IMG/VR virus record: IMGVR_UViG_3300023197_000064 | Coordinates: 1 to 42,400 of that record | Direction: 5' to 3' (one strand) | Length of the DNA: 42,400 nt | From: a virus | Lineage: Duplodnaviria > Caudoviricetes | Shown here: positions 2,267-17,969 of the stretch, one piece after another | Numbering within the stretch: the first letter of the stretch is position 1 | Layout of the letters: every line of letters starts with the position of its first letter | Position numbers and translations under genes: made by a program | Notes under the pieces: model-generated | The model's input: the letters and a program-made list of their open reading frames with translations, nothing else | What the model was told of the DNA's origin: nothing | The model's database searches: none

Positions 2267-2474
2267 ATTCGGCTACGCGCGGGTCGCTGGCTTCAATGTC
2301 CGCTTCGAGGTCAGAAATAATGTCGTCGATCGAGACGGTTTCGCTGGTCTCAAAGCGCTCCAAGACCTTGGTGGCGATCAGGCGTGCCAGGAATGTGTGC
2401 CCGCCTTCGCTCCACGTACGGACCATCGTGTCACCGAGCTTGCGGGCGTCCTGTCGCGGGTCGTTCTCGGACAT
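2199..2474 (-). CDS. Hypothetical moron-like protein (91 aa)
   Basis: Antisense to the early operon, lower GC, AGGGGAAAC RBS, duplicated upstream promoter element. Confidence 0.7.
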   Translation of the reverse strand: MSENDPRQDARKLGDTMVRTWSEGGHTFLARLIATKVLERFETSETVSIDDIISDLEADIEASDPRVAEFNRPALERLRELRALHRADEEK

Positions 2475-2513
2475 CGGTTTCCCCTGCCTCTCCGTTGTTC
2501 CCGCACGTGACGG

Positions 2514-3026
2514 TAAGGGGATTCGGGCCGGTCGTCATCGCGCGACGGTGGCGGCCGGTCCGTCATTCACGTCAAAGCAGGAGGTGGGTTATGAGCGCAG
2601 CTACTCGGTATCGGGATCAGATGAGGCGTCTCCGGGGCCATCTCGCCGAGATGCGGAGAGCCGCCGAAGCAATTCGTGCTGTGATGCGATTGTCATAGCC
2701 GATCCTGTCTCGGAAAAGACGCCCTCAAATTCCTTGAGCAGGTCGCCGGCGGCTTCGATCGGCTCGGCGGCCTCTTCTCCCATTTGTGAGCGGGTGAAGT
2801 CGGCCGTTTTTTGTAAATGCTCCAGTATATCGGATCTGTCGAGGACGCCTTTATCGATCAATATGCCCGCAAGGGAAATGAAGAGCATCGTGTTCCCTTT
2901 GACCAGGCTCTCGATCTCTTCAAAGCGTTTTTCTGACATCTGTTTCCCCTCCGTCGCTTCGTTGGGCACCCGCGACGATAAGGGGATTCGGGCCGGTCGT
3001 CATCGCGCGACGGTGGCGGCCGGTCC
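2514..3026. repeat. 48-bp exact direct repeat (2514-2561, 2979-3026) upstream of two antisense genes
   Basis: TAAGGGGATTCGGGCCGGTCGTCATCGCGCGACGGTGGCGGCCGGTCC occurs twice, 465 bp apart; on the minus strand each reads ATGACG-N17-TAYCGT. Confidence 0.9.
2601..2939 (-). CDS. Hypothetical moron-like protein (112 aa, MSEKRFEE...)
   Basis: GGAGGGGAAACAG-ATG RBS; same leader architecture as 2199..2474. Confidence 0.7.
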   Translation of the reverse strand: MSEKRFEEIESLVKGNTMLFISLAGILIDKGVLDRSDILEHLQKTADFTRSQMGEEAAEPIEAAGDLLKEFEGVFSETGSAMTIASQHELLRRLSASRRDGPGDASSDPDTE

Positions 3027-3056
3027 CTCGCGCGCGGCGGGCCGGGAGGCCCTGGC

Positions 3057-3527
3057 GTGATGGCGCGCCAGCGGACAGATGCGGCGACGATGGACCTGCT
3101 CACCTGGGAGCGGGCCGAGACGCTGGTGTCGCGCTACGACGACCGGCAGGTGCGCACGGTCACGCTGCGCTCGAAGATCGCGCGGGCCGTGGCGGAGACG
3201 CTGCGCGAGGCCGACAAGGCACGCGAGCAGATCGCCCAGGACATGACCGAGTGGCTGGGGGAGGACGTCACCAAGAACATGCTGGACGCGTACGCGAGCG
3301 AGGCGCGGGAGGATCACACCATCCCGTTCCTGCGCCTGCTGGCGCTCGTCCACGTCACGGGCGACACGCGGCCGCTGCAGCTCGGCGCGGAGCAATTCGG
3401 CTGCGCGGTGGTGGAGGATCGCTACCTGCCTTGGGTCGAGGCGGGGCAGCTCGCGGAAGTCCGGGACAAGGCGGAACAAGAGCTGCAGGCCGCGCGCCGG
3501 CGCGCGCGCAAGGGGGTGCGGGGATGA
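3057..3527 (+). CDS. Mu-like prophage early hypothetical/regulatory protein
   Basis: REQIAQDMTEWLGEDVTKNMLDAYASEAREDH motif typical of proteins just upstream of transposases in Mu-like prophages; GC-rich codon use. Confidence 0.75.
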   Translation: MMARQRTDAATMDLLTWERAETLVSRYDDRQVRTVTLRSKIARAVAETLREADKAREQIAQDMTEWLGEDVTKNMLDAYASEAREDHTIPFLRLLALVHVTGDTRPLQLGAEQFGCAVVEDRYLPWVEAGQLAEVRDKAEQELQAARRRARKGVRG

Positions 3528-4120
3528 TGGTGCGCGAACGGCTACGGCAGGTCTTGGAGATCCGCCGCACAGTCCTGATCAGCGCCGACCGCCCCGTCAC
3601 GGTCCTCGTGCGCGACCTCGATCATCTGGGGGTGCGCTGGGCATCTGCGATGGTGCGGGGTGAGTGGGCACTGCGCAGGGCCGCTGAATGGGAGGCGCGC
3701 GCACTCTTCTTCCTCCCGGAACTCGCTTTCGGCGCCCAAAAGGTCCTCACCGATTTGCTGGCGCGCTTGCATAAGGGCGTCGTTCGACATGTCCAGCGGC
3801 GAACGCCGGGGGCGTTTCGGCCATCTTTGGGCATCTTTTCCTTGTCCTTGCGCCTGCTCCAGTTCGGCCTCGCCATGCATGAGGCGCGGATGTCGGCCAT
3901 CGACTGCCAGCGCGCCAACATGCGCGCACGGTTCGCCCTGAGACCGCTACAGCACAAGCTGCGGTGCCGGCATCAGGTTCTTCAATGCTTCGATGAGCAT
4001 GATCTCGTCGAGGCGCGGCCGCGGCGCAGCAGTGAATGGGCATGCCTCCACCCATCACCGGTTACGCATCAGGCTGTGATGCCAGATAGTCGCCACGTCG
4101 GCGGAGGCGGCCGGCCATGA
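3524..4120 (+). CDS. Hypothetical protein (198 aa)
   Basis: ATGA overlaps with both neighbours; 3' half has atypical codon use. Confidence 0.4.
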   Translation: MMVRERLRQVLEIRRTVLISADRPVTVLVRDLDHLGVRWASAMVRGEWALRRAAEWEARALFFLPELAFGAQKVLTDLLARLHKGVVRHVQRRTPGAFRPSLGIFSLSLRLLQFGLAMHEARMSAIDCQRANMRARFALRPLQHKLRCRHQVLQCFDEHDLVEARPRRSSEWACLHPSPVTHQAVMPDSRHVGGGGRP

Positions 4121-6336
4121 AGCGCTGGTACACCGCCGCCGAGCTGGCCGAGCTGACCCTGCCCGATATGCCGGGCACCAAGCAGGGCGTCGCCGAGGTG
4201 GCGCGCCGCGAGGGCTGGCAGGAGCGCGTTGACCCCGACGGCAAGCCGCTCTCGCGCCGGCGCCAGGGGCGTGGCGGTGGCTGGGAGTACAACGTCGCGC
4301 TGTTGCCGGAGCGGGCGCGGGCAGCGTTGGCGGCGCGGCACGCGCCGGTGGGCGAGCCGGCGGCGGACGAGAGCACGTCGTCCCAGCGCGGGCTGGCCGA
4401 GACGGCGGGCCTGGATGAGCGCCGCCGGCGCCGCGCGGAAGCGCGGGCGGCGATCGTGCACGCCTGCCGCCGCTATATCCGTGACGGCGATCTGCAGATG
4501 GAGCGCGGGCTGTGGCTGTTCGCCGAGGCCTACAACCGCGGCGAGGTCGCCGTGGCGGGCTGGGTTCAGTCCGAGGTCGAGCGCGTCAGCCGCGGGTCGC
4601 TGCGCAACTGGTGGAAGCAGCTCGACCGCGAGGGGTTGGCGCGGCTGGCCGGGAAGTACGGCAACCGCCGGGGCACCGGGCAGATCGACCGGGTGCCGGA
4701 GATGCGGGAGGTGGTGGAGGCGATGCTCTACACCTACCCGCACGCCTCGGCGAAGCACGTGATGCGGGCGCTGCGGGCGCGCTTCGCGGAAGATCAGATG
4801 CCCGCATTCCGGACGGTGCAGCGCTACATCACCCAGTGGAAGAAGGCCAACAAGCAGGTCCACGCCAAGGCGCAGAGCCCCGACGGCTGGCGCAGCGCGC
4901 ATCAGGCCGCGTCGGGCGTGCAGGCCGAGACGGTGGCGCGGCTGAACCAGGTGTGGGAGTTGGACAGCACGAAAGCCGACGTGATGCTGGCCGACGGCAA
5001 GCGCCACGCCATCATCGCCGGCATCGACGTGTACTCCCGCCGGCTGAAGCTGGTGGTGGACCGCACCAGCCGGTCGGGCGGCATCGCCGCGCTGCTGCGC
5101 CGGTCGCTGCTGGACTGGGGTGTGCCGGAGGCGATCAAGACCGACAACGGCACGGACTACGTGAGCCGCCACATCACGGGCGTGTTCGCGGCGCTGGATA
5201 TCGACCAGCAGCTCTGCCCGCCGTTCAGCCCCGACAAGAAACCCTTCGTTGAAAGGGCTTTAAAAACTTTCCTCCACGACCTGGTGGAGCTGCTGCCGGG
5301 CTACACCGGCCACAACGTGGCCGAGCGCAAGGCCCTGGAGGATCAGCAGGCCTTCGCCGACCGGCTGATGCGCGCGGGTGATGACCCGATCCGCGACGTC
5401 CAGCACCTCACCCCGGCGCAGCTGCAGGACATCTGCGACCGGTGGTGCGAGAACATCTACGAGCAGCAGCCGCACGGCGGGCTCGGCGGCAAGTCGCCGT
5501 TCGAGGTGGCGCAGGCCTGGGGGCAGCGCGTGCGTCGCATCGAGGACGAGCGGGCGCTGGACGTGCTGCTGTCCGCGCCCGTCGGCGACGGCTGGCGGAC
5601 GGTGCGCAAGAAGGGCATCCAGCTCTTCAATACCTACTACGACGACCCGGCGCTGGGCGGCCTGGAGGGGCAGCGCGTCCAGGTGCTGATAGACGAGGCC
5701 GACGCCTCGCACCTCTTCGTGTTCTCCGAGCAGGGCGAGTTCGTCTGCAAGGCCTTCGCGCCCGAGGCATCCGGGTTGTCGCGCCAGGAGCTGGCCGCAA
5801 AGCGCCGCGCCAACCAGCGCCAGGCCGTCAACGCCGGCACGGCCGCCCTGCGCCGGAGCGCGCGCAGCCAGGACGTCAGCAACATCGCGGGCGAGATCCT
5901 GGATCAGGCGGAGCAGCGGCGCGCCAAGGTCGCCAGTTTTCCGACGCCGAGCGAGACGCACCGCACGGGCGCGCTGGACGAGGCGGGCAAGGCCGCCCGC
6001 GCCGGGCGCGCGCCCGAAGCGGCGCCGCGCAGTGCGGCCGAGGAGGAGCAACACCGCCGGGTGGTGGAGGATCTCAGCGCCCACCGCCCGGCGGCCAAGG
6101 AGCCGTTTCAGCCACCCAAGGATCCACTGGAGCGCACGATCCTGCGGCTGGATATCGCCGACGCTCAGGCCTGCGGCGAGGCATTCGACGCGGACGCCGT
6201 GGCCTGGGCGCAGAGATACGCCGCCACCGACAGGGGGCGGCGCGAGATGGAAACCCAGCAGGAATTCGCGGAAGCGCGCCGGGCTCTCCGGCAGGGAGCG
6301 CACGCCCGGCGCGCAACCGCAAAGAAAGGAGCCTAG
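4117..6336 (+). CDS. Mu-like DDE transposase A
   Basis: N-terminal Mu-HTH (WYTAAELA...GRGGGWEY), WELDST (D), IKTDNGTDY (D), KKPFVER (E), Mu transposase C-terminal RTVRKKGIQL. Confidence 0.95.
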   Translation: MKRWYTAAELAELTLPDMPGTKQGVAEVARREGWQERVDPDGKPLSRRRQGRGGGWEYNVALLPERARAALAARHAPVGEPAADESTSSQRGLAETAGLDERRRRRAEARAAIVHACRRYIRDGDLQMERGLWLFAEAYNRGEVAVAGWVQSEVERVSRGSLRNWWKQLDREGLARLAGKYGNRRGTGQIDRVPEMREVVEAMLYTYPHASAKHVMRALRARFAEDQMPAFRTVQRYITQWKKANKQVHAKAQSPDGWRSAHQAASGVQAETVARLNQVWELDSTKADVMLADGKRHAIIAGIDVYSRRLKLVVDRTSRSGGIAALLRRSLLDWGVPEAIKTDNGTDYVSRHITGVFAALDIDQQLCPPFSPDKKPFVERALKTFLHDLVELLPGYTGHNVAERKALEDQQAFADRLMRAGDDPIRDVQHLTPAQLQDICDRWCENIYEQQPHGGLGGKSPFEVAQAWGQRVRRIEDERALDVLLSAPVGDGWRTVRKKGIQLFNTYYDDPALGGLEGQRVQVLIDEADASHLFVFSEQGEFVCKAFAPEASGLSRQELAAKRRANQRQAVNAGTAALRRSARSQDVSNIAGEILDQAEQRRAKVASFPTPSETHRTGALDEAGKAARAGRAPEAAPRSAAEEEQHRRVVEDLSAHRPAAKEPFQPPKDPLERTILRLDIADAQACGEAFDADAVAWAQRYAATDRGRREMETQQEFAEARRALRQGAHARRATAKKGA

Positions 6337-6339
6337 GGT

Positions 6340-7077
6340 ATGACGAACGTCGATCCGCCGATCAACGGGACGACGGCGCCGCTGCGCAATGTGGCGCTGT
6401 TTCAGAGCCTTGTCCAGGAAGTTGTGAACCGGCCGCGTCACCTGCCCGGTATGGCCACGTTCCACGGCTTCAGCGGCTACGGCAAGACGAAGGCCGCCAC
6501 ATATGCGGCTAACAAGTTCCGGGCCTACTACATCGAGGTCGGGGAGAGCTGGACCAAGCGCAAGTTCATCCAAGCGTTGGCCACGGAGTTGGGGCTGGAT
6601 ACCCGCGGCACGGTCGCGGACCTGGTGGACAAGATCATCGCCCAGCTCGTGATCACCGACCGCCCGATCATCATCGATGAGTTCGATCATGTGGTGCGGC
6701 GCCGGTACCACGAGGTGATCCGCGAGATCCACGACAAGTCGGACGCGCCGATGCTGCTCATCGGCGAAGAGCTGCTGCCTCAGCTTCTGCAGGCCTCCGA
6801 GCGCTTCCACAACCGCATGATCAACTGGGTTCCCGCGCAGCCGTCCGACGGCAGCGACGCGGCGCAGCTCGCCCAGCTCTTCGCGCCGGAGATTGCGCTG
6901 GCCGACGACCTGGCGGCGCAGGTGGCGGAGACCTCGGCCGGCCAGGTGCGCCGGATCGCGGTGAACATCGAGCGCATCCGCCAGGAAGCCGCGATCAACG
7001 GCTGGGAGATGGTGGACGCCGCGACGTGGGGCGGCCGCGAGCTGTTCGCCGGGCGTCCGCCGGCGCGGAGGCAATAA
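6340..7077 (+). CDS. MuB-like AAA+ transposition ATPase
   Basis: Walker A GFSGYGKT, Walker B IIIDE; immediately after the transposase. Confidence 0.93.
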   Translation: MTNVDPPINGTTAPLRNVALFQSLVQEVVNRPRHLPGMATFHGFSGYGKTKAATYAANKFRAYYIEVGESWTKRKFIQALATELGLDTRGTVADLVDKIIAQLVITDRPIIIDEFDHVVRRRYHEVIREIHDKSDAPMLLIGEELLPQLLQASERFHNRMINWVPAQPSDGSDAAQLAQLFAPEIALADDLAAQVAETSAGQVRRIAVNIERIRQEAAINGWEMVDAATWGGRELFAGRPPARRQ

Positions 7078-7079
7078 CG

Positions 7080-7706
7080 ATGGCGAACCGGCCGATCGAC
7101 GAGCGGGTGCGCCTGTCGGTCCGGGTGCCCCGCGGCATCCAGGGGTACTGGGACATCATGCGGCGGCTATCAGCCGAGCAGGGCGTGTTCACGCTGCGCG
7201 ACGTGGACCTCCAGTCGAACGTCAACAAAGACGCGATCCGCGACTTCCTCAAGCGCCTGGAGCGCGCGGGCTACGTCGCGCACACGGGCTACCGCGACAA
7301 AGCCAAGCTCTACCAGCTGCGGCACGACCAGCCGGAGGCGCCTCGGCTGCGCCGCGACGGCTCGCCGGCGCGCGAGATGGGGCGCGCCAACGAGCAGGTG
7401 TGGCGCACGGCGAAGATGCTCAAGCGGTTCACCACGCGCGAGTTGGCCGTGCACGCCTCCACGGAGGACGTGCCGGTGCGCGAGGAGACGGCCTACCAGT
7501 ACCTGCGTCATCTGGAGCACGCGGGCTACGTCCGGAAGGTCGAGGCCGGGCGCCCCGGCCACAAGCCCGGTACGGGCAAGCAGGCCACCTACGCCCTGCG
7601 CCCGGACATGATCACCGGGCCGCTGGCGCCGCAGATCCAGCGCACCGACTGGGTGTGGGATCCGAACCTCAAACGGCCGATGGGCCCGGAAGGGGGTGAA
7701 GCATGA
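7080..7706 (+). CDS. Hypothetical tandem winged-helix-like early protein
   Basis: Two repeats (FLKRLERAGYV; YLRHLEHAGYV) and a TGPLAPQ...WDPN tail; usual position after B. Confidence 0.75.
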   Translation: MANRPIDERVRLSVRVPRGIQGYWDIMRRLSAEQGVFTLRDVDLQSNVNKDAIRDFLKRLERAGYVAHTGYRDKAKLYQLRHDQPEAPRLRRDGSPAREMGRANEQVWRTAKMLKRFTTRELAVHASTEDVPVREETAYQYLRHLEHAGYVRKVEAGRPGHKPGTGKQATYALRPDMITGPLAPQIQRTDWVWDPNLKRPMGPEGGEA

Positions 7707-8077
7707 GCCGCACCTCCGCTCACGAGCGCGCCCGCAAGGGCTGGGGCGAGACGCTGCCGCCGTGGATCGCGGCCCTCGCCCGCGCCTGCGACGAGGGCAC
7801 GCAAACCGATGTTGCGCGCCGGCTCGGCTACTCGGTGGCCGTGGTGAACACCGTCCTGCGTGGCACCTACCGCGGCGACACAAAGCGCGTCGAGACTGCG
7901 GTGCGCGGCGCGCTCATGGCCGAGACCGTCGCCTGCCCGGTGCTCGGCGAGATCGACAAGCAGCGGTGCCTCGCCGAGCAGGCCAAGCCCTTCGCCGCGA
8001 CCAGCAGCCTGCGGGTTCAGCTTTACCGCGCCTGCCGCAGCTGCCCGAACAATCAAGGAGGTCGCAATGCTGAGTGA
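7703..8077 (+). CDS. HTH transcriptional regulator with Cys-rich C-terminus
   Basis: QTDVARRLGYSVAVVNTVL HTH; CPVLG...C...CRSC. Confidence 0.75.
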   Translation: MSRTSAHERARKGWGETLPPWIAALARACDEGTQTDVARRLGYSVAVVNTVLRGTYRGDTKRVETAVRGALMAETVACPVLGEIDKQRCLAEQAKPFAATSSLRVQLYRACRSCPNNQGGRNAE

Positions 8078-8315
8078 CGACTTGAAGGCGGTCCAGGACA
8101 AGCTCACGGCCGCGCAGGCGGCCGGCGGGCTGTCGCGCCAGGATCTCGACGCGGCCGCGGCCAGCATCGCGCAGGCCGTCGCCGACGCGCGCCACCTGGA
8201 GGCGGCGGCGCTGACCGCGCAGGCCCGCGCCGTGCCCGAAGGCGCGAACGTCGTCTCGCTGTCGGCCCGGCGCCGGACGGCGGCGCCGGCTCCCGGCGGC
8301 GGGAGTGCGGCATGA
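8067..8315 (+). CDS. Hypothetical protein (82 aa)
   Basis: GGAGG RBS before ATG 8067; overlaps neighbours. Confidence 0.65.
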   Translation: MLSDDLKAVQDKLTAAQAAGGLSRQDLDAAAASIAQAVADARHLEAAALTAQARAVPEGANVVSLSARRRTAAPAPGGGSAA

Positions 8316-8632
8316 CGGGGCGCCTGTATCAGCCGGGCGATCGGGTGGCGCTGGCGGATGCGCCCGACACGCCCGTCGGCGAGGTGGTTGCGGTCGAGAC
8401 CCTGGGCGACCGGCAGATCCTGCGGCTGCAGGAAGCGGATGGTGCGTTCCGGGCCGTGGCGGTCGATCACGCGGGCGGCATCATCAGCGGGCCCGTGGAT
8501 CTCGACGAGGCGCACCGCCTCGCCCGCGCCGCGCTGAGCGGGCGGCCGCTGCGCGTTCCCGAGCAGCTTCAGCTGACGACACTCGCCAGCGCCTTGCTGG
8601 TGCTCACCCCGGAGCACTGGAGGTCGGCATGA
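8312..8632 (+). CDS. Hypothetical protein (106 aa)
   Basis: ATGA coupling; GC-rich codons. Confidence 0.65.
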   Translation: MTGRLYQPGDRVALADAPDTPVGEVVAVETLGDRQILRLQEADGAFRAVAVDHAGGIISGPVDLDEAHRLARAALSGRPLRVPEQLQLTTLASALLVLTPEHWRSA

Positions 8633-8775
8633 TCTGGGCGGCGAGCATGTGCAGTCCGCTGCGGGCCTTGGACCGGCTGGGGCTCCGCCCGCCCCGCCGG
8701 AAGGCCACGCGGTGGAAGCTCCTGGCGTTGTCCGGCGCGGTGAGCGCCCACAACGCGACTTTTAACGGCTTTTAA
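8629..8775 (+). CDS. Small hypothetical protein (48 aa)
   Basis: GGAGG RBS and ATGA coupling; fills the gap to the next gene. Confidence 0.4.
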   Translation: MIWAASMCSPLRALDRLGLRPPRRKATRWKLLALSGAVSAHNATFNGF

Positions 8776-8787
8776 AAGGAGGTGGCG

Positions 8788-9327
8788 ATGTCGCGCCTCA
8801 GCGATATCGAAGAGACGGCTGAGCAGTACCGCGGGGTCCGCGACGACCTCTCGGCTCGCGTCACCGAAATGGAGCGCGAGGTCGAAGATGTAAAACGCCG
8901 GCACATGCCGGCGATCCGCGAGCTGGCGGGCCGGGCCACGGACCTGCAGACCAAGCTGCGCGAGCAGGTGCGTGAGGCGAAAGGTGTGTTCACGCAGCAG
9001 CAGCGCACGATCACGGTCTCCGGCATCCGGGTTGGCTGGCGCAAGACCACCGGCCGGGTGAAGATCCGCGACGGCAAGCGCACGGCCGAGCTGATCCAGA
9101 AGCATTTCCCCGATCGCTACGACCAACTCGTTCAGGTCGAGTACAAGCCGGTGAAGTCGGCCCTCGCCAAGCTGTCGGCGGGCGAGCTGCAGAAGCTCAA
9201 CGTCTCGCTGGAGGGGGGCCACGACGAAGTCGTGATCAAACCCCAGGACAGCGAGATCGACAAGTTGGTCGACAAGCTGTTGGAGGAAGACCAGCAGCAC
9301 AACCAGCCGGAGGTGGGCCATGCCTGA
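8788..9327 (+). CDS. Host-nuclease inhibitor Gam-like protein
   Basis: Coiled-coil N-terminus then RTITVSGIRVGWRK...YKPVKSAL, like the Mu Gam family; strong AAGGAGG RBS. Confidence 0.7.
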   Translation: MSRLSDIEETAEQYRGVRDDLSARVTEMEREVEDVKRRHMPAIRELAGRATDLQTKLREQVREAKGVFTQQQRTITVSGIRVGWRKTTGRVKIRDGKRTAELIQKHFPDRYDQLVQVEYKPVKSALAKLSAGELQKLNVSLEGGHDEVVIKPQDSEIDKLVDKLLEEDQQHNQPEVGHA

Positions 9328-9571
9328 TGCGGGCTACGGCGGCATCTCGCCCGAGCAGCTTCGGAACTACATCGAGCGCATCGAAAAGCTGGAAGAGGAA
9401 AAGGCTGCGCTGCAGCAAGATCTCAACGAGGTCTACAACGAAGCCAAGGCCAACGGCTTCGACACCAAGATCATGCGTCAAATCATCCGCCTGCGCAAAA
9501 AGGACCACGAGGACCGCCAGCAGGAGGAGAGCATGATCGACCTGTATAAAAATGCGCTGGGGATGGAGTGA
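9320..9571 (+). CDS. DUF2312 / GapR-family DNA-binding protein
   Basis: QLRNYIERIEKLEEEKAALQQDLNEVYNEAKANGFDTKIMRQIIRLRK...LYKNALGM is the family signature. Confidence 0.92.
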   Translation: MPDAGYGGISPEQLRNYIERIEKLEEEKAALQQDLNEVYNEAKANGFDTKIMRQIIRLRKKDHEDRQQEESMIDLYKNALGME

Positions 9572-10686
9572 TCACCATGCAACACACGATGGACACACGC
9601 GCGCACCTTCTGGAGCGGAGCCTCGACGCCGGCCTCGCCCCGCTTGAGGCTCTCACCGCGGCGCAGCGGATGTGGCGCTTCGTCCGCGACGGCGACGGCG
9701 CCCCGGATGGCCGGGCGGCGATCATCGGCATCGAATACAGCCAGTCCCGCGGCTGGCGGCGGATCGACGTGGACGGCAATCGCTTCGAGCCCCAGGACGG
9801 GTTCTTCGACAGCCACCCTGTTTGGGGCGAAATTCGGACCGTCTCTGTCGAGGGGCAGATTATGGTCGAGATCCCGGCCTTCTACGTCCGCCGCGAGCAC
9901 AGCGGTGACGCCATGCGGCTGTGGGTCAGCCCCCAGCCGGCGGCCGGTTTTCATCGCCACGCGGCCTTCCGGTTGCTGGGCATCGACCTGCCGGCGGTCC
10001 AGGTGGGCGCCTACGAGGCCTGCCCCAACGGCGACGTGGCTGGCAGCCTTGCGGGCGTGGACCCGCTCACGCGGATCGACTTCCCGGCGATGCAGCGGGC
10101 CTGTCGGCGCCACGGCGGAAACGGCTTCGGGTTGTGGTCGATCTACGAGCTGTCCGCCATCCAGACGCTGGTGCTCATTGAGGTCGGCTCGCCGGACGTC
10201 CAGGGCGAGGTCGGCTTCGGCAACGTCCACGGCGGCGGCCCGAAGCTCACCGGCAGCACATCGGCGTGCTGGCGCGGCATCCACGAGCTGTGGGGCAACG
10301 TGCTCCACATGGTGGACGGGCTGCAGCACGACCCGGACGGCCAGATCCTGCTGTGGGACGAGGACGGTCATGGGTCCTGGGTGCACACCGGCATCCAGTC
10401 GGCGGGGCTGAACAGCATCGGCGCCATCGATGGCTTCCGGAGCGAGCAGGCCTTCGCCGATGTCTTCCTGCCATCCGCGATCGGTCGCAGCGACGATGGG
10501 GCAATTCTGTCGGACCTGTACGTCGCGCCGGATGTCGGCCGCCCAAGCGTCGCCTACCACGGCGGCAACTGGAGCAATGGCTCGCGGGCGGGCCTCTTCA
10601 TCCTGTACTGCAACAACACCGCGTCGGGTTCCGGCTCGCTTATCGGCGGTCGCCTCGCAAGGCGCGTTCTGCACCCGGAAACCTGA
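9568..10686 (+). CDS. Second (remote) DGR target protein with C-terminal C-type-lectin-fold-like domain, paralogous to the tail-fibre C-terminus
   Basis: Aligns over ~330 aa with the C-terminus of 37241..40078 (HPV.G, MVEIP.FY, IDFP.MQ, LWSIY, LWGNV, VAYHGG...IGGRLA) and ends in a VR. Confidence 0.9.
   Translation: MITMQHTMDTRAHLLERSLDAGLAPLEALTAAQRMWRFVRDGDGAPDGRAAIIGIEYSQSRGWRRIDVDGNRFEPQDGFFDSHPVWGEIRTVSVEGQIMVEIPAFYVRREHSGDAMRLWVSPQPAAGFHRHAAFRLLGIDLPAVQVGAYEACPNGDVAGSLAGVDPLTRIDFPAMQRACRRHGGNGFGLWSIYELSAIQTLVLIEVGSPDVQGEVGFGNVHGGGPKLTGSTSACWRGIHELWGNVLHMVDGLQHDPDGQILLWDEDGHGSWVHTGIQSAGLNSIGAIDGFRSEQAFADVFLPSAIGRSDDGAILSDLYVAPDVGRPSVAYHGGNWSNGSRAGLFILYCNNTASGSGSLIGGRLARRVLHPET
10558..10661 (+). 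repeat. DGR variable region VR2
   Basis: Colinear with TR 40818-40921; 9 mismatches, all at TR adenines. Confidence 0.95.
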
Positions 10687-10717
10687 GTTCTGACGGCCCC
10701 GCCGATAGGCGGGGCCG
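10678..10717 (+). promoter_or_regulatory. VR2 downstream DGR cis element: GAAACCTGAGTTCTGA plus 10-bp hairpin with GATA loop
   Basis: CGGCCCCGCC-GATA-GGCGGGGCCG at 10694-10717; same offset from the VR as the VR1 element. Confidence 0.85.
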
Positions 10718-10796
10718 ATCCCCCGGCGAAACCGCGCCCGCGGTCTGCGGGGAATGGGCGCCCCGCACTGACGAGCCAGCCCGAAACGGAGGAACC

Positions 10797-11312
10797 ATGG
10801 GTCAGCGCAGCCTCCTCAAAGCGCCGCCGCGCTACACCGAGGCCTTCGAGCGCTTCTGGAAAGCGTATCCCACGCGCCGCCCCAACCCGAAGGCGCTCGC
10901 CGCCCAGGCTTTCGCCGAGCTGGAGCGCGCGGGCGAGGATCCGGAGGAGGTGGTCCGCGCAGCGCGCCGCTTCGCGGCGGAGTGCGAGCGCCTGGAGATC
11001 GCGCCGGCCTACATTCCGCATGCGCGCACCTGGCTCTCCCAGCGGCGCTTCGAGGATTACATGGGCCCCGGAGAGCCGGAGGGCGATGCCGGGGCGGAGC
11101 CGGCGGACGATCCGCTGTACGGCGCCCTGGATCTGCAGCCGGCCGAGTATCGCAACTGGATCGCCCCTCTGCGCATCGAGCGCGGCGAGCGCGCGGCGCG
11201 TATCCACGCACCCAGCCGCTTCCATGCGGATTGGGTGCGTAGGCAGTACGCCGACCGGCTTCGCCGCGCGCTTGGCCGGCCCGTCGAGATCATCGCCGGA
11301 GGCGGACGATGA
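10797..11312 (+). CDS. Hypothetical protein with phage replication-protein-like N-part and DnaA N-terminal-like C-part
   Basis: FERFWKAYP...YIPHARTWL..RRFED, then YRNWIAPL...IHAPSRFHADWVRRQY (DnaA domain I-like); GGAGG RBS. Confidence 0.7.
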   Translation: MGQRSLLKAPPRYTEAFERFWKAYPTRRPNPKALAAQAFAELERAGEDPEEVVRAARRFAAECERLEIAPAYIPHARTWLSQRRFEDYMGPGEPEGDAGAEPADDPLYGALDLQPAEYRNWIAPLRIERGERAARIHAPSRFHADWVRRQYADRLRRALGRPVEIIAGGGR

Positions 11313-12064
11313 CCGCCGCACATCAGCAGTCGGATCGGAAGACCTTCGGCGGTGGCCGCAATGCCGCCTTGGCCAAGCTCCACAAGGCGGCGAAGGACTG
11401 CGGCCACGGCGACGAGACCAGGCGCGACGTCATCGAGCGCGTCACGGGCAAACGCTCGGCCGCGCAGCTCAGCGTGGCGCAGCTCGACCAGGTCGTGAAT
11501 CACTACAAGCGTGAGTTGGGCTGGCAGGAGCGCGGCAAAAAGCGTCGCCAGGGCGGCGGCAAGCGGCGCGGCGGCGGGCTTGCGCCGGGCGAGGTGCAGG
11601 CCAAGGCGCGCGCGCTCTGGCTCTCGTTGTATCATCTGGGCGAGGTGCAGGAGCCGGGCGAACAGGCGCTGGACACGTTCGCGCGCCGGCAGCTCGGCTA
11701 CGACAGTCTGCGCTTTCTCCCGGCGGCCGAGGCGTCGGCCGTGGTGGATGCGCTGAAGGCATGGTGCCGGCGCGCAGGCTTCGCCGTGGGCGACGCGGAC
11801 GCCCATCGGCGCATCCAGGATTTCCGCGTGTTTTGCGGCCGCGCGGAGGCGCTCGCGCACCCCGACAAGGTGATCCTGATCCGCGCCTTGTGGGAGAAGC
11901 TGATCCAGGAGGGCGCGATGTATCATGGCATCCACGCCAGCCTGGAAACCTACCTCCTCCGCCGTGGCTACGGCACGGACAAGGTCGATCTTTTGACCGA
12001 CGCTCAGGCGGACGACGCCGTCGAGCGCCTCGGTCGCTGGTATCGGAGGGTCGTGGATACATGA
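11309..12064 (+). CDS. gemA: GemA (Mu gp16, DUF1018) family protein
   Basis: LAKLH...RDVIERVTGKRSAAQLSVAQL...KARALWLSLYHLG...ASAVVDALKAW; directly upstream of Mor as in Mu. Confidence 0.85.
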   Translation: MTAAHQQSDRKTFGGGRNAALAKLHKAAKDCGHGDETRRDVIERVTGKRSAAQLSVAQLDQVVNHYKRELGWQERGKKRRQGGGKRRGGGLAPGEVQAKARALWLSLYHLGEVQEPGEQALDTFARRQLGYDSLRFLPAAEASAVVDALKAWCRRAGFAVGDADAHRRIQDFRVFCGRAEALAHPDKVILIRALWEKLIQEGAMYHGIHASLETYLLRRGYGTDKVDLLTDAQADDAVERLGRWYRRVVDT

Positions 12065-12423
12065 TCGTCTCCGCCCAGCTCCAGGAAATCGCGGACGTCA
12101 TCGGCGAGGTGCCGGCGCTGCGCCTGGCGGAAGTCTACGGCGGCCAGGAGCGCTGTTACGTGCCGCGCACGCCTTCGCCCACGCACCGGTGGGCGCAGGT
12201 GGTCGGCTGGGAGGCGTGGCGCGCACTGTGCGAGCACTTCGGCGGCGAGCGCATCGACATCCCGCGGAATGCGTTTGCACGCAGCAAAAAGATCCGCATC
12301 GTGGAGCTGGCGCAGCGCGGCGTGAGCCACGCCGAGATCGCGTCCCTCGTCGGCTGTACCGAGCGCTGGGTGCGCAGCGTCGTGAACGCCGGCGCCGAAG
12401 AAGGCCAGCCCGAGCTGTTCTAG
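12061..12423 (+). CDS. Mor/C-family transcriptional activator
   Basis: ALRLAEVYGGQ.CYVP...LCEHFGGERIDIP and C-terminal HTH (SHAEIASLVGCTERWVRSV); last gene before the lysis operon. Confidence 0.85.
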   Translation: MIVSAQLQEIADVIGEVPALRLAEVYGGQERCYVPRTPSPTHRWAQVVGWEAWRALCEHFGGERIDIPRNAFARSKKIRIVELAQRGVSHAEIASLVGCTERWVRSVVNAGAEEGQPELF

Positions 12424-12440
12424 CTGGCCAAGCGGCTTCG

Positions 12441-12487
12441 CCCGGAAGCCGTTCCGGGCATTCCCCTGCGTGTGTCCGTCCCATGCT
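12441..12487 (+). promoter_or_regulatory. Candidate Mor/C-activated late promoter 1 (lysis/head operon)
   Basis: CCCGGAAGCCGTTCCGGGCA followed after 21 nt by -10-like CATGCT. Confidence 0.7.
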
Positions 12488-12525
12488 CTCCGCGACCGCA
12501 AGGTGACGCCGACGCGGAGGGCGCC

Positions 12526-12969
12526 GTGACCGTCTACACCAAGCTCGACGTGGATACGCTTGCCCGCACGCTCTACGGAGAGGCGCGGGGTGAAGGCATC
12601 GACGGCATGCACGCCGTGGCGCACGTGCCGTTGAACCGCCTGAAAAACCCCGGCTGGTGGACGCGCGAGCAGGGCGACGGCATCCCCGACGACACCGTGG
12701 CCGCCGCGTGTCGCGATCCCTATCAGTTCAGCACCTGGAATGCCGGCAACCCCAACCGCGACCTGATCCAGAAGGTCACGTTGGACGACCCGGTCTTCCA
12801 GAAGGCCTACGGCGTGGCGATCGCGGTGCTCCACGGCCTCGGCGGCTTCGGCGAGGATCCGGCGAACGGCGCGACACACTATCACACGGTGAACGTGTCG
12901 CCCTCGTGGGCGGAGGGGCGCGAACCCGTCAAGCGGGTCGGCGATCACCTGTTTTACACCGACATCTGA
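12526..12969 (+). CDS. Endolysin, cell-wall hydrolase (SleB/Hydrolase_2 family)
   Basis: LARTLYGEARGE...VAHVPLNR...YQFSTWN...GATHYH...PSWA...GDHLFY; GGAGG-GTG start. Confidence 0.9.
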   Translation: MTVYTKLDVDTLARTLYGEARGEGIDGMHAVAHVPLNRLKNPGWWTREQGDGIPDDTVAAACRDPYQFSTWNAGNPNRDLIQKVTLDDPVFQKAYGVAIAVLHGLGGFGEDPANGATHYHTVNVSPSWAEGREPVKRVGDHLFYTDI

Positions 12970-12980
12970 AGGGGGTCGTC

Positions 12981-13217
12981 ATGGGCGGCAAGAAGCCCTG
13001 GTACAAGTCGAAGACGGTCTGGTCCGGCGTGATCACCGTGGGCGCAAGCATCGCCGGCACGTTCGGCGTGCAGGTGGACCCGGAGACGCAGCAGCAGCTC
13101 GTCAATCAGATCGTCCCCGCCATCACCACGCTGACCGGGCTGGGCGCGGTCATCGGCCGGCTCATCGCGCGCGATGAGCTGTCGGACAAGAAGGGCTCGG
13201 ACGAAGGGCAGTCCTGA
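12981..13217 (+). CDS. Putative holin (78 aa)
   Basis: KPWYKSKTVW plus two hydrophobic segments and a charged tail, after the endolysin. Confidence 0.7.
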   Translation: MGGKKPWYKSKTVWSGVITVGASIAGTFGVQVDPETQQQLVNQIVPAITTLTGLGAVIGRLIARDELSDKKGSDEGQS

Positions 13218-13426
13218 TGTGGCTGGCCCTCGTTGGCGGAGCCGGCTTCGTGGCGGTCGCGGCGTTCGTGGTTTGGCGCTACGGCCGCTCGAAGTACGAG
13301 GCCGGCCAGGCCGATGCGAAGCGTGAGCAGGTCGAGAGCGCCCGTGATGCCCAGAAGCGCATGGACGACGTGGACCCGAAAGGCGAGTCCGGCACCGTCG
13401 AAGAGCTGGAAGACGGCGGGTACTGA
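13217..13426 (+). CDS. Putative i-spanin-like membrane protein
   Basis: N-terminal TM segment then a charged helical region, within the lysis cassette. Confidence 0.55.
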   Translation: MWLALVGGAGFVAVAAFVVWRYGRSKYEAGQADAKREQVESARDAQKRMDDVDPKGESGTVEELEDGGY

Positions 13427-13439
13427 CGGCCGCCGGTAC

Positions 13440-13682
13440 GTGGCGGCGCTCTTGGGCGGTCTGGCCGTGGCGGCGTGCGCCGGCGGCGCCGGCTACGTCG
13501 CCGCGCCGGAGCTGCAGCGCTACAGCGACGCTTTTCAAGATCGCCTGGCGCGCGAGATGCAGCGCGCCGACGGTTCACCGTGCAGCCGCATTGAGCCGCA
13601 GGACGGGTGCCTCGCGTGGAAGCGCGTCGTCATCGATCACGGCACGATGCGCGACAAGATCCGGGCGGCGGAGGACGATTGA
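13440..13682 (+). CDS. Putative o-spanin-like lipoprotein
   Basis: Signal/lipobox LLGGLAVAAC; follows the i-spanin candidate; start uncertain. Confidence 0.5.
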   Translation: MAALLGGLAVAACAGGAGYVAAPELQRYSDAFQDRLAREMQRADGSPCSRIEPQDGCLAWKRVVIDHGTMRDKIRAAEDD

Positions 13683-13683
13683 G

Positions 13684-14052
13684 GTGGAGTGGCTCGACGT
13701 TCTCTACCGCCTGTGGCCGGTGGCGAGCCTGCTGATCACCGGTTTGGCGGCGTGGCTGCTGTGGTCCATCCGCAAGCACTTCGTCACGCGCCAGGAGTTC
13801 AAGGACACGCTGGAGGCGCTTCAGGGCGATGGTCAGGACCGCTCGGAGCGCATCGCCGCCCTGGAAAACCGGATCGCGCACGTCCCATCCCAGGACGACG
13901 TCCACGATCTTCGTCTGTGCATCACCCGATTAGAAGGGTCGATGGACACGCTCGGCAAGCGTCTGGACGGCACGGAGCGCCTGCTGGAGCGGTTCGAGAG
14001 CGTCGTGAACCGCCAGGAAGACTACCTGATGAACCACGGAAGCGGGCGATGA
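13684..14052 (+). CDS. DUF2730-like (Mu gp25-like) membrane/coiled-coil protein
   Basis: N-terminal TM, FVTRQEF...RIAALENRIAHVPSQDDVHDL...; Mu synteny. Confidence 0.7.
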   Translation: MEWLDVLYRLWPVASLLITGLAAWLLWSIRKHFVTRQEFKDTLEALQGDGQDRSERIAALENRIAHVPSQDDVHDLRLCITRLEGSMDTLGKRLDGTERLLERFESVVNRQEDYLMNHGSGR

Positions 14053-14357
14053 ATTATCAGCAGCACGTAACGGCGGACCGGCGTCTGCAGATCCTGCGGC
14101 TGCTCGCGCAGGATCCCGGCGGCCAGACCAACCACATCATCCTCCACCAACTGCTGGAGGAAGTCGGCCACCGGCCGAGCGTGGACCAGATCAAGGACGA
14201 TCTGGCGTGGATGGAGGAGCTGCAGCTCGTGGAGGTGTCGGTCGTCGGCCAGGGGACGTACCACACCGCGCAGATCACCGAGCGGGGCAGCGACGTCGCC
14301 AACGGGCGCAGCACCGCGCGCGGCGTGCGCAAGCCGCGGCCGAGCGAGCTGGGCTGA
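14049..14357 (+). CDS. Mu gp26-like winged-helix protein
   Basis: DRRLQILRLL...DDLAWMEELQLV...ITERGSDVANG...GVRKPRP. Confidence 0.8.
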   Translation: MNYQQHVTADRRLQILRLLAQDPGGQTNHIILHQLLEEVGHRPSVDQIKDDLAWMEELQLVEVSVVGQGTYHTAQITERGSDVANGRSTARGVRKPRPSELG

Positions 14358-14368
14358 CGGAGGCGTCT

Positions 14369-14923
14369 ATGGCGCGGCGGAGCAGCCTCGAAGACCTCCC
14401 CCAAGAGTTGCTGGACGAGGTCAACAGCCTCGTCGGCGAGCGCGGCTGGACGATCGACCAGGTCGTTGAGTATCTGCGCGAGGCGGGGTATCCGCGCTCG
14501 CGCTCGGCCGTGGGCCGGCACAGCAAGCGCGTCCGCGAGCTGGGCGAGCGGTTGCGCCAGTCGCGGGAGATTACCGAGGCGCTGGTCAAGGAGATGGGGC
14601 CGGCCGCGCAGGAAGGCCAGCAGGGACGCCTGCTGGCGCAGATGCTGCGCACACTGGTGCACGACCACCTTGAGCAGCAGCTGCAGGAGGGTGGCAGCAC
14701 GCCAGACCCCGAGCAGTTCGCCTACTTGGCGCGCACACTCAAGGAGATCTCGCAGGCAACGCGCCACGACCAGGACTTCGAGCAGAAGATCCGCGAGCAA
14801 GTGCGCCAGGAGGAGCGCGAGCAGGCCGCGCAGCAGGCCGTCGAGGCCGCGAAGAGCGCCGGCCTGTCGGGTGAGAAGGCGGCGGACATCCGCCGCGACA
14901 TCCTCGGAGCGCCGGCCGCATGA
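14369..14923 (+). CDS. Mu gp27-like (DUF3486) terminase small subunit
   Basis: MARRSSLEDLP...SRSAVGRH...GLSGEKAADIRRDILG; precedes TerL. Confidence 0.85.
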   Translation: MARRSSLEDLPQELLDEVNSLVGERGWTIDQVVEYLREAGYPRSRSAVGRHSKRVRELGERLRQSREITEALVKEMGPAAQEGQQGRLLAQMLRTLVHDHLEQQLQEGGSTPDPEQFAYLARTLKEISQATRHDQDFEQKIREQVRQEEREQAAQQAVEAAKSAGLSGEKAADIRRDILGAPAA

Positions 14924-16494
14924 GCGAGCCCGAGGCGCCGTTCGTCCTGCTGCCCTATCAGCAGCGCTGGGTCGGTGACGACGCTGCGGTCAAGGTGGCC
15001 GAAAAGAGCCGGCGTGTCGGCCTGACGTGGGCCGAGGCCTCGGACGACGTGCTCATCGCTGGCATGCGCGCTGACGCCGGCGGCGCGGACGTGTGGTACA
15101 TCGGCTACAACCAGGACATGGCGCGCGAGTTCATCGAGACCTGCGCGGCCTGGGCGGCGCAGCTCCGGCGCGCCACCACGGCGATGACGGCGCCCGGCGA
15201 CGCGGAAGAGGTCCTGGTCGATGACGACGACAAGGACATCCTGGCCTTCCGCATTCGCTTCGCTTCAGGGTTCAAGATCACCGCGCTATCCTCGCGCCCG
15301 TCCAACCTGCGCGGCAAGCAGGGCGTGGTCGTCATCGACGAAGCGGCCTTCCACCCCGATTTGAACGCGCTTTTAAAAGCGGCGTTCGCGTTGCTCATTT
15401 GGGGCGGGCGCGTGCGCGTCATCTCCACGCACGACGGCGTGGAGAACCCGTTCAATGAGCTGATCGAAGACATCCGCGCCGGCCGCAAGGAGTACAGCCT
15501 GCACCGGATCACCTTCGACCAAGCACTTTCCGATGGCCTGTACCAGCGCATCTGCCGGGTCAACGGCGAGACCTGGACGCAAGCCAAGGAAGACGCCTGG
15601 CGCCAGGAGATCCGTGCCATCTACGGCGACGGCGCCAGCGAAGAGTTGGACGTCATCCCGCGCGCCAGCGGCGGCAAGTGGCTGCCCCGCGCCGTCATCG
15701 AAGCGCGCATGACCGAGCGCGCGTCCGTGGTGCGCTGGTCGTGCGAGGACGGCTTCGTGGACCGGCCGGATCACGTGCGTCGGGCGGATTGCCGTGACTG
15801 GCTGGATGCGGAGCTGCGCCCGATCCTGGACCGCCTGACGGCCTACGACGCCACCTATATCGGCGAGGACTTCGGCCGCACGGGCGACCTGACCGTGCTC
15901 TGGCCGTTCGTGGTGGATCAGCACCTGAACCGCCGGGCGCCTTTCGTCGTCGAGCTGCGCAACGTGCCGTTCACGCAGCAAGAGCAGGTCGTGCAGTACC
16001 TCATCGATCGCCTGCCGCGGTTCTCCGGGGGCGCCTTCGATGCGCGGGGCAACGGGGCGTATCTCGCCGAGCGCGCGCGCCAGCTCTACGGCGCGTCGAT
16101 GATCCACGAGGTCCAGCTTTCCGAGGCTTGGTACCGCGAGAACATGGCGCCCGTGAAGGCTGCGTTCGAGGACGGCACGATCGCCATCCCCAAGGACGCG
16201 GACATCCTGGAGGACTTCCGGGCAGTCGAGGTGGTCAAGGGTGTGCCCAAGGTGCCGGACACGGCCCGCACGCGCGGGCGCACCGGCCAGCGTCACGGCG
16301 ACGCGGCGATCGCCTGCGCGCTCGCCTACGCGGCGACGCGCGCCGAGACGGGCCCCGCCGAGGTGCAGGTCGCGGGCGACCGCCGGGCCGGCGCCGCGCC
16401 GGGCGTGCTGGGCGAGGATCACCCGATGGGGTTTGACGCCGGCGACGACCTGCCGCTGCCGGGCGCCGGGGACTTCGAGGAGTTCATGGCATGA
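14920..16494 (+). CDS. terL: Terminase large subunit (Mu gp28-like)
   Basis: LLPYQQRW, EKSRRVGLTW, LRGKQGVVVIDEAAFH, GEDFGRTGDLTV, RHGDAAIA. Confidence 0.95.
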   Translation: MSEPEAPFVLLPYQQRWVGDDAAVKVAEKSRRVGLTWAEASDDVLIAGMRADAGGADVWYIGYNQDMAREFIETCAAWAAQLRRATTAMTAPGDAEEVLVDDDDKDILAFRIRFASGFKITALSSRPSNLRGKQGVVVIDEAAFHPDLNALLKAAFALLIWGGRVRVISTHDGVENPFNELIEDIRAGRKEYSLHRITFDQALSDGLYQRICRVNGETWTQAKEDAWRQEIRAIYGDGASEELDVIPRASGGKWLPRAVIEARMTERASVVRWSCEDGFVDRPDHVRRADCRDWLDAELRPILDRLTAYDATYIGEDFGRTGDLTVLWPFVVDQHLNRRAPFVVELRNVPFTQQEQVVQYLIDRLPRFSGGAFDARGNGAYLAERARQLYGASMIHEVQLSEAWYRENMAPVKAAFEDGTIAIPKDADILEDFRAVEVVKGVPKVPDTARTRGRTGQRHGDAAIACALAYAATRAETGPAEVQVAGDRRAGAAPGVLGEDHPMGFDAGDDLPLPGAGDFEEFMA

Positions 16495-17969
16495 GCGAGA
16501 GCCAAGCGCCTGTCTTCGAGGAGATCGCGCGGGCGCGCGACGACGAAAACATCGTCGGCGGCCTGATCAGCGAGCTGCGCACGCCGCGCGACGAGATCCT
16601 GCGCACGCGCGGGCGCGGTGACCTGTCGCTGTACGAGCGCACCAAGCGCGACGACCAGGTGCAGTCGTGCCTGCAACAGCGCTTCCACGCGCTGGTCAGC
16701 CGGGAATGGCAGGTCGAGGCCGGTGGGCGTCGCCGGCGCGACCGGCAAGCGGCGGATTTCATGCGGGAGCAGCTGGAGCATGTGCGCTTCGACGACGTCA
16801 CCCAGAAGATGCTCAACGGCATCTGGTTCGGCTACGCGGTGGCGGAGTGTCTCTGGGCGCCGGACGGCACACGCGTAGCGCTCGACGACGTTAAGGTGCG
16901 CCGGCCGGCGCGCTTCGCCTTCGATGTGGACGGGCGGCTGCGCCTCCTCAAGCCCGGCCTGCACAGTGGCGAGATCATGCCGGGGCGCAAGTTCTGGACC
17001 TACGCCTTCGGCGGCGACGACCACGACGACCCTTACGGCCGCGGCCTCGCCTACTGGTGCTATTGGCCGGTCTGGCTCAAGCGCAACGTGCTCAAGTTCT
17101 GGAGCATCTACGCCGAGAAGTTCGCCGCGCCCACCGTGCGCGGGACCGTGCCGCACGGCTGGTCCCAAGAGGAGCGCAACAAGGTGCTGCAGGCGCTGCG
17201 CGCCATGACCTTCGATAGCGCCGTGGTGATCCCCGAGGGCGTTGACGCGCAGCTGCTGGAGGCGAGCACGCGCACCGGTGGCGATTACCAGCAGTTCTAC
17301 CAGGAGATGAACGGCGCCATCTCCAAGATCATCCTGTCGCAGACGATGACGACGGATGACGGCAGCTCGCGGGCGCAGGCCGACGTGCACGACCGCGTGA
17401 AGCTGGAGGTGATCCGCCGGGACGAGCAGGTCCTCAACGAGTCTTTCAACGCGCAGGTGGTGCGCTGGCTGACGGACTGGAACTTCCCCGGCGCCGCCTA
17501 TCCGCACGTCTTCCGCGACGTCCAGGAGGCCGAGGATCTGAAGGCGCGCGCGGACCGCGACGTCCAGATCTCCAAGCTCGGCTACAAGCCCACTCAGACC
17601 TACATCGACGAGACCTACGGCGAGGGCTTCGAGCCGGCCGCCGGTGGGGGCGGCGACAGTCAGCCGCCCCGGCAAGACCAGGGTAGCAGCGCGAACGGCC
17701 AGTCGTTCGCCGAGGCCGAGGAGGCCGAAGACCAGCGCGACGAGCTGACACGCCAGCTCGATACCCTGGCCGAGGACGAGTTGACGGCCTGGATCGACGA
17801 AATCCGGCGCATCGTGGACACCGCTCCGGATATCCCCACGGCCATCGAGCGGCTGGAGGCGCTCTACCCGGATCTCTCGCTCGACCGCCTGGCCGCCTTG
17901 ATCGGCGACGGCATGGCCGTGGCGAACCTGCAGGGCCGCGCCGAAATCCAGGACAGCACCGATGGTTGA
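16491..17969 (+). CDS. Portal protein (Mu gp29 / DUF935)
   Basis: GYAVAECLW, DPYGRGL...YWPVWLK, ISKIILSQTMTT, SSRAQADVH; follows TerL. Confidence 0.92.
   Translation: MSESQAPVFEEIARARDDENIVGGLISELRTPRDEILRTRGRGDLSLYERTKRDDQVQSCLQQRFHALVSREWQVEAGGRRRRDRQAADFMREQLEHVRFDDVTQKMLNGIWFGYAVAECLWAPDGTRVALDDVKVRRPARFAFDVDGRLRLLKPGLHSGEIMPGRKFWTYAFGGDDHDDPYGRGLAYWCYWPVWLKRNVLKFWSIYAEKFAAPTVRGTVPHGWSQEERNKVLQALRAMTFDSAVVIPEGVDAQLLEASTRTGGDYQQFYQEMNGAISKIILSQTMTTDDGSSRAQADVHDRVKLEVIRRDEQVLNESFNAQVVRWLTDWNFPGAAYPHVFRDVQEAEDLKARADRDVQISKLGYKPTQTYIDETYGEGFEPAAGGGGDSQPPRQDQGSSANGQSFAEAEEAEDQRDELTRQLDTLAEDELTAWIDEIRRIVDTAPDIPTAIERLEALYPDLSLDRLAALIGDGMAVANLQGRAEIQDSTDG

Follow-up and report, generated by a model that had tools for sequence, protein, structure and literature searches.

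A distal second DGR target in the early region of a Mu-like phage and the family to which it belongs

Introduction

Why would a phage hypermutate a protein of its early region as well as one of its tail? The role of distal second targets of phage DGRs is a question that has been posed in print. It arises again here from a 42.4-kb virus record of a Mu-like myophage with a contractile tail; the whole stretch of 42,400 nucleotides that was analysed is termed the window. Two genes in the window have a VR that matches the same template repeat (TR). The first target, T1, is a tail-module protein and the second, T2, is a short gene situated among early genes.

The phage and its DGR cassette

The gene order along the window, by Pfam and PHROGs, is repressor, MuA, MuB, Gam, GapR, T2, a DnaA_N-like gene, GemA and Mor. 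Mor is followed by Mu-type head genes, the contractile tail and then T1-Avd-TR-RT. An earlier note on this DNA had placed T2 in the early region upstream of GemA/Mor, and this order is confirmed. MuA, MuB, Gam, GemA, Mor and a Mu-type portal are all present, as in Mu-like transposable phages, and the repressor is on the strand opposite to the MuA-to-Mor run. T2, being between GapR and GemA/Mor, is not encoded in the late tail module, and Avd, the TR and the DGR reverse transcriptase (RT) are all found in the same element as T2. The genes and repeats concerned are as follows.

8782-9327, + strand: Mu Gam-like gene, an early operon marker (Pfam/PHROGs)
9320-9571, + strand: GapR-like gene, immediately 5′ of T2 (Pfam/PHROGs)
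9577-10686, + strand: T2, second DGR target gene, 369 aa from the likely start
10797-11312, + strand: replication-protein-like gene with a DnaA_N domain, immediately 3′ of a hammerhead ribozyme (Pfam/PHROGs)
11309-12064, + strand: GemA (Pfam/PHROGs)
12061-12423, + strand: Mor-like activator (Pfam/PHROGs)
37241-40078, + strand: T1, first DGR target, a 945-aa tail-module protein with a C-terminal CLec paralogue of T2
40430-40819, + strand: Avd (Pfam/PHROGs)
40818-40921, + strand: TR, with 25 A and 14 variable codons (~4e13 peptide variants)
41099-42147, + strand: DGR RT, its frame broken in this record by a one-base frameshift near 41363-41376

The matched halves of the window's RT are separated by 14 nt. 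An intact RT allele of 349 aa (P0076) is on record, and it is identical to both halves. No close cultured phage with a T2 homologue was found in the phage collection searched, which gave three weak matches at 23-29% identity.

Other features of the window were also recorded. A 94-aa gene at 40145-40429 (+), between T1 and Avd, is ~42% conserved in several relatives and has no family match. The Mu-type head protease (19388-20704, +) has an HTH_3/HTH_31 domain in mid-protein, at residues 209-268, and the MuF minor head protein (17962-19185, +) has a PBECR2 nuclease-type domain at its C-terminus. Two 59-nt direct repeats (2506-2564 and 2971-3029) that are 95% identical and 465 nt apart lie between the repressor and the transposase, in a region with no Pfam or PHROGs match. 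The tape-measure gene displays five repeat copies with a spacing of 126 nt at 29213-29920.

Two targets of one template repeat

The VR sequences were defined by comparison with the TR, and each is followed by a hairpin.

39968-40071, + strand: VR1
40105-40126, + strand: VR1 target hairpin, 9-bp stem and GATA loop, the loop 43 nt past the VR1 end
10558-10661, + strand: VR2, with an invariant GC-rich, IMH-like 3′ end of 21 nt at 10641-10661
10694-10717, + strand: VR2 target hairpin, 10-bp GC stem and GATA loop, the loop 43 nt past the VR2 end

VR2 differs from the TR at nine of 104 nucleotides, and all nine differences are at TR adenines (25 A in the TR; hypergeometric P=7e-7); they make up the seven codon changes that had been listed when VR2 was first described as a second target. 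VR1 shows 14 differences, 13 at A, the remaining one being the last base. The two VRs have two identical substitutions in common and differ at 16 sites, in keeping with the earlier claim that VR2 was diversified separately. The hairpin stems of VR1 and VR2 differ in sequence, but the GATA loop and the 43-nt spacing are the same. Hairpin-region z values are -3.6 for VR2, -2.9 for VR1 and -1.4 for the TR, where no hairpin stands out.

The same signature is seen when 12 two-target genomes are pooled. In VR2, 126 of 269 TR adenines are changed versus 6 of 883 other bases, and VR1 bears the same load (130 of 269 adenines, and six other bases). Adenine signature, hairpins, pooled counts and the variation between copies described below all uphold the proposal that one TR/RT targets both genes, and it is practically certain that VR2 is targeted by the phage's DGR. 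By analogy with BPP-1, Avd-RT would make mistakes at adenines when copying TR RNA, and the mutagenised cDNA would home to VR1 and VR2 independently.

A cluster look-up yielded one near-identical copy each of T1 and T2. The T2 copy differs at four of 369 aa, three of these being VR codons that are AAC in the TR; the T1 copy differs at 10 of 945 aa, all within VR1. The suggestion had been made that variation should be sought at TR-adenine sites, and in this one variant copy such a bias is what is found, in three of four T2 changes and 10 of 10 T1 changes. In sequencing run X1, which is not necessarily independent of the source of the window, a 1978-nt contig across T2 has six letters unlike the window, and among those listed two are outside the VR (9861 and 10104). 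The other four are the minimum required by the three VR residue changes of the T2 copy. The T2 variant protein can probably be tied to this contig, through its length and the 9861 change. The same run shows no differences in 4000-9393 (5.4 kb 5′ of T2) and one in 12100-16000. Two 127-nt contig variants were found at 11420-11546 in GemA, one of which has six differences, and the X1 population is thus not uniform outside the VR either. A near-identical copy that varies almost solely at TR-adenine codons, together with an intact RT allele, argues that both T1 and T2 have recently been diversified, as judged from the sequences of a single variant copy.

The T2 protein

The likely start of T2 is the ATG at 9577. 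It has GGAG upstream, database copies and a 58% homologue start there, and it is 5 nt past the GapR stop. A GTG at 9568 was considered and rejected in favour of this ATG on the evidence of the GGAG, the database copies and the homologue. The length given previously, 372 aa, is therefore more likely 369 aa. Since the start is more likely this ATG, behind the GapR stop, the GTGA overlap is probably not what couples T2 to GapR.

T2 is 40% identical to residues 622-944 of the fibre T1 over 324 aa, and the proposed paralogy with the fibre C-terminal domain is therefore sound. The Ig-like part of the fibre, given as FN3 in the earlier note, scored as Pfam Ig_Rha78A_N. No hydrophobic, signal or transmembrane segment was found in T2, as had been noted before: the best 19-residue Kyte-Doolittle mean is 1.33, and that of the N-terminal part is 0.7. 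The parts of the protein are as follows.

9577-9690, + strand: N-terminal two-helix cap (aa 2-17 and 22-38), from the predicted structure; found in this T2 lineage only
9718-10668, + strand: CLec (FGE-type) domain, from predicted structure and profile; the closest solved fold is TaqVP, 5VF4

The structure model, built from 109 sequences, has a pLDDT of 93.8 and consists of two helices, a linker and a single domain; it supersedes a poor model from 15 sequences (pLDDT 55.5). Compared with TaqVP (5VF4) the model gives Z 28.1 and rmsd 2.6 with 253 residues aligned, and lower values with TvpA (Z 15.2) and Mtd (Z 13.8). TaqVP is also the sole sequence match to T2 among solved structures (profile E 1.7e-17). 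T2 would thus share its FGE-type CLec fold with TaqVP (PMC6328139) and Mtd, and by prediction and homology it is a CLec-fold protein with a C-terminal VR.

A profile of the two-helix cap found nine matches among 1.84 billion proteins, four of which are T2-family N-termini. The other five are multi-stretch matches and are taken as chance (one of the five was inspected). An Atlas search for the cap as a known domain yielded no usable match. Other T2 proteins start at the first CLec strand or bear N-terminal extensions that are unrelated to each other. The Rhodospirillum centenum T2 has a P-loop-like peptide added at its N-terminus (L011:8664-8870), and a Desulfovibrio T2 has an 85-aa helical N-terminal addition with no Pfam match (L004:9737-9990).

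The T2 family and its genomic context

Three scans gave 132 related loci, duplicates between collections included, and these were classed by ORF length and flanking genes. Thirty-three are short, stand-alone T2-type copies outside the tail module; the rest are mostly long fibre-type copies, with about ten unclassified. Members of the T2 family are found in prophages of environmental bacteria that are in culture, namely R. centenum, Devosia elaeis S37, Pseudoruegeria aquimaris CECT 7680 and Gulbenkiania mobilis DSM 18507.

The neighbouring genes were scanned at 20 of the 33 T2 loci, and at 17 of the 20 they are early, replication, recombination or regulatory genes. In Mu-like prophages T2 is between MuB/DUF3164 and GemA/Mor; an orthologue in this position is what the earlier note had advised looking for in Mu-like DGR prophages. 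In non-Mu phages, lambdoid ones included, T2 is found beside YqaJ, RecT/ERF, SSB, RdgC or methylases. The exceptions are one T2 immediately behind the cassette (L109) and two uninformative neighbourhoods. Methylases adjoin T2 in four of the 20 relatives scanned (L004, L020, L087 and L091). In the window, no anti-defence gene is recognisable among the T2 neighbours (Gam, GapR, DnaA_N-like and GemA).

Does this position allow a function in the prophage state? In Mu, the MuA-to-Mor run is silent in lysogens. T2 is on the lytic strand within that run, opposite the repressor, and a promoter scan of 1400-13500 gave one site versus 0.8 expected, i.e. no internal promoter above chance. These observations, and the absence of an effector part from most T2s, make it quite unlikely that T2 is a prophage-borne sensor or blocker which recognises a variable protein of superinfecting phages in the cell. 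Such a sensor would fit a soluble binder whose hypervariation is independent of VR1 and whose N-terminal add-ons vary as swappable effector parts would, and bacteria do have DGR-diversified putative antigen sensors (PMC10907252).

Perhaps T2 has no function of its own, and is a passenger or an archive: a duplicated fibre tip that is mutated for the signals it retains, or a silent donor of VR sequence. The homology between T1 and T2, which runs beyond the VR (207 nt at 77%), would be expected of such a duplicate, as would the loss of the TR match in some T2s. However, outside the VR dN/dS is 0.03-0.33 in 12 of 12 T2 pairs, compared with 0.06-0.51 in eight T1 pairs; the pairs are not independent, and the set is made up of T2s other than that of the window. 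Reading frames and hairpins are intact across the family. The sequence comparisons thus indicate that the T2 family is under purifying selection. The T2 lineage is in addition old and separate, and its VR has been matched to new TR types, as described in the next section; the passenger reading is largely refuted and very improbable.

As to origin, a quick tree of 55 rows computed without the VR places the T2s on their own branches in two groups, the window T2 being long-branched. In a second quick tree, of 28 of these rows, 12 of 13 T2s are on one side, and a single T2 clade is not rejected (p 0.30); the Desulfovibrio T2 is there a sister to its own fibre. The trees therefore disagree between two groups and one clade, and by sequence T2 may have had one origin or two. 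A recent duplication from the phage's own fibre, which would make the window's T1 and T2 sisters, was tried as a candidate and rejected (p-AU 0.004).

Is hypervariation itself kept?

The VRs of 23 T2 loci were set against the TR of the same record or genome; L090 lacked a TR for this comparison. At 18 of the 23 loci at least 75% of the differences are at adenines. Drifted cases are L015/L104 (6 of 10 at A), L016 (9 of 20-22 at A) and L012, which has no TR match. These T2s have diverged from every TR found, so that not all members of the family have kept their hypervariation.

An RT search in 10 genomes found an RT in nine, and in four of these there are two in tandem. The tandem Avd-TR-RT cassettes (L145-L148, in genomes G007-G010) have different TRs. 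In G010 and G009 the TR of cassette 1 matches the adjacent gene, and that of cassette 2 matched only the remote T2, with 11 of 12 and 10 of 13 differences at A, respectively, across the 60 kb and 81 kb that were examined. The match between the second TR and T2 has drifted in G008 (9 of 22 at A), and in G007 the second TR is lost. Three further genomes (G001-G003) have a tail target of another family, TaqVP-like, whose G001 member is 35% identical to T2; here the VR of T2 conforms to the TR type of the phage that carries it. T2s of different TR types are still 76-77% identical upstream of the VR end. The simplest reading of these sequences is that T2 persists while tail cassettes swap, its VR having been rewired to the resident TR.

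The VR residues can also be compared between the two targets. At changed codons, VR1 and VR2 have the same residue in 20 of 71 cases within genomes versus 107 of 548 across genomes (p=0.12), and VR2 residues do not appear to track the VR1 of their own genome. This bears on the idea that T2 is a soluble copy of the fibre tip that masks the phage's own receptor, for exclusion or to shield the progeny against debris of the receptor when the cell lyses. Some other phages make receptor blockers early, and T2 shares the fold and the TR of the fibre tip. Yet VR2 is mutated separately and matches VR1 no better than it does across genomes, and this separate mutation would break a receptor specificity shared with VR1. 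In addition, T2 has no export signal, and it persists beside a tail target of a different, 35% identical family. Receptor masking is thus improbable. The receptor decoy and swappable fibre tip, which had been offered as options earlier, are both weakened: VR2 does not follow VR1, and the T2 lineage is old and separately selected.

A virion function of another kind has to be weighed as well. In seven relatives the cassette-adjacent targets in the tail module are stand-alone CLec proteins of 351-383 aa, and Mtd of BPP-1 is a separate protein (PMC10743442); a bare CLec domain can therefore be a virion part. As stand-alone CLec proteins of the same size occupy tail modules, the lack of an anchor in T2 says little on a non-virion role. 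T2 might then serve in the virion as an accessory adhesin or as an alternative tip for receptor binding, made early and assembled on the tail or head, perhaps via the cap. Its paralogy with the fibre tip, its best viral fold matches, which are fibre C-termini, and a residue spectrum at AAY codons that is alike in VR1 and VR2 are all consistent with this, and a doubling of host range has been proposed for the paralogous Lagaffe pair (PMC11792537). On the other side, the early-module position of T2 is repeated across unrelated phage types, and many T2s have no extension before the first CLec strand, the existing extensions being mutually unrelated. The closest structure, TaqVP, is a monomer (PMC6328139). 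An adhesin is accordingly unlikely, albeit less so than the other alternatives considered above.

A type II hammerhead behind T2

Directly 3′ of the VR2 hairpin is a ribozyme motif that was absent from the earlier note.

10724-10785, + strand: type II hammerhead ribozyme (RF02276), predicted cut after GUC at 10745, 4-bp pseudoknot

The motif scores 49.5 bits versus a gathering cut-off of 37 (E 6.5e-7), has the core CUGANGA / GAAA / NUH, and stems I and III are closed. Among five sources scanned, the window and L019 pass. A core-and-stem pattern is present behind seven of 26 T2 loci, all of them cap-bearing, and was not found behind the other 19; there is no other match in 2.3 Mb. The stems and a pseudoknot of 4-6 bp are retained in 12 of 12 hammerhead copies checked. 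Of 29 hammerhead loci from pattern scans, 13 follow a T2-type gene. The other 16 follow unrelated genes, and the hammerhead is therefore a general phage intergenic element that travels with the T2 lineage. At the RNA level, cleavage of the early message by the hammerhead is predicted at 10745, so that the T2 part would end just past the VR2 hairpin.

The type II hammerheads described by Perreault et al. (2011; PMC3088659) are, in the text available, also found between prophage genes, and have an intact core, a short stem II and a pseudoknot between loop I and the 3′ tail. The window hammerhead differs from these in its association, within one T2 lineage, with a DGR target and the hairpin of that target.

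Relation to known systems

The published systems are described here from those parts of the papers that were available. The cassette resembles the BPP-1 DGR (mtd-avd-TR-brt) in gene order, AAY-rich TR, GC-rich VR end and downstream inverted repeat. BPP-1 has one adjacent target, whereas in the window another target lies in the early region, at a distance of 30 kb. DGRs of Mu-like phages (PMC5883640, PMC9769972) and two-target cassettes (PMC10743442) are known. A study of Mu-like phage DGRs leaves out remote targets by design (PMC8144416), and in the catalogue of Wu et al. (2018; PMC5758913) many phage DGRs combine an adjacent target with another that is not adjacent but lies within 50 kb.

A close parallel is Quimbyvirus (Benler et al., 2021; PMC8008677), where one TR likewise serves two CLec targets, of which one follows the tail genes and the other is distal. 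Both vary at adenines, the RT is frameshifted in the record as it is in the window, and the distal target was read as non-structural and linked to phage-host conflict. Quimbyvirus differs in being a phage of Bacteroidota whose distal target is encoded on the opposite strand, within an island rich in methylases. The window phage is Mu-like, and its target, inside the Gam-GemA-Mor run, is paralogous to the fibre tip over the full domain, bears a two-helix cap and is followed by a hammerhead. Four inducible gut prophages have a second VR distal to the RT cassette and near counter-defence genes (Dahlman et al., 2025; PMC12629997); the hosts are gut bacteria, and the portion of text seen holds no analysis of target family, selection or cassettes. 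Lagaffe_CP, Lelie and CP11 are Faecalibacterium phages with two-target DGRs (PMC11792537). The Lagaffe_CP pair are Mtd-like paralogues of 40% identity, as here, but are read as a possible doubling of host range, and the sections at hand do not discuss an early position.

The novelty that had been attached to a distal non-structural second target was therefore overstated, as such targets are in print (PMC8008677, PMC12629997, PMC5758913). Searches of mainly open-access papers, in their main texts, found nothing on this proteobacterial T2 family, on DGR cassettes retained to serve an early target or on a hammerhead that follows a DGR target. What is added to the known kind is the family-level evidence of selection, the dedicated second cassettes and the hammerhead.

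Possible function of T2

In Mu, the stretch between B and mor holds early, semi-essential genes, and T2 would be co-transcribed with the early operon. The early, non-structural reading put forward at the outset has gained from one observation, the conservation of the early-module position in unrelated phage types, and has lost from another, the existence of stand-alone CLec proteins of the same size in tail modules. On balance T2 probably has an early, non-virion role.

Comparison of the family members suggests how this may have come about. An old duplicate of the fibre-tip domain would have shed the fibre and then settled in early operons, and T2 would have been kept hypervariable for its own sake, its VR being rewired to the resident TR and second cassettes being kept. 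T2 would then bind its own ligand, most probably a host protein that varies and is encountered within the cell. The best explanation, which stands about an even chance, is that T2 is a soluble CLec protein, made early, that binds a variable protein of the host within the infected cell and functions in counter-defence or host takeover. Published distal second targets adjoin counter-defence genes (PMC8008677, PMC12629997). A more elaborate version is offered tentatively, and is somewhat doubtful: T2 would be an antibody-like intracellular weapon of proteobacterial temperate phages, an old, fibre-derived early CLec binder directed against a variable target in host defence or takeover, which it would neutralise. 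Hypermutation itself would be selected, and the ribozyme would free the message in the Mu-like branch.

The T2 family is evidence that distal second DGR targets are selected proteins and not debris, given the dN/dS values, the rewiring and the dedicated cassettes. Should the ligand be an intracellular host protein, DGRs would drive phage counter-defence, beyond the switching of tropism.
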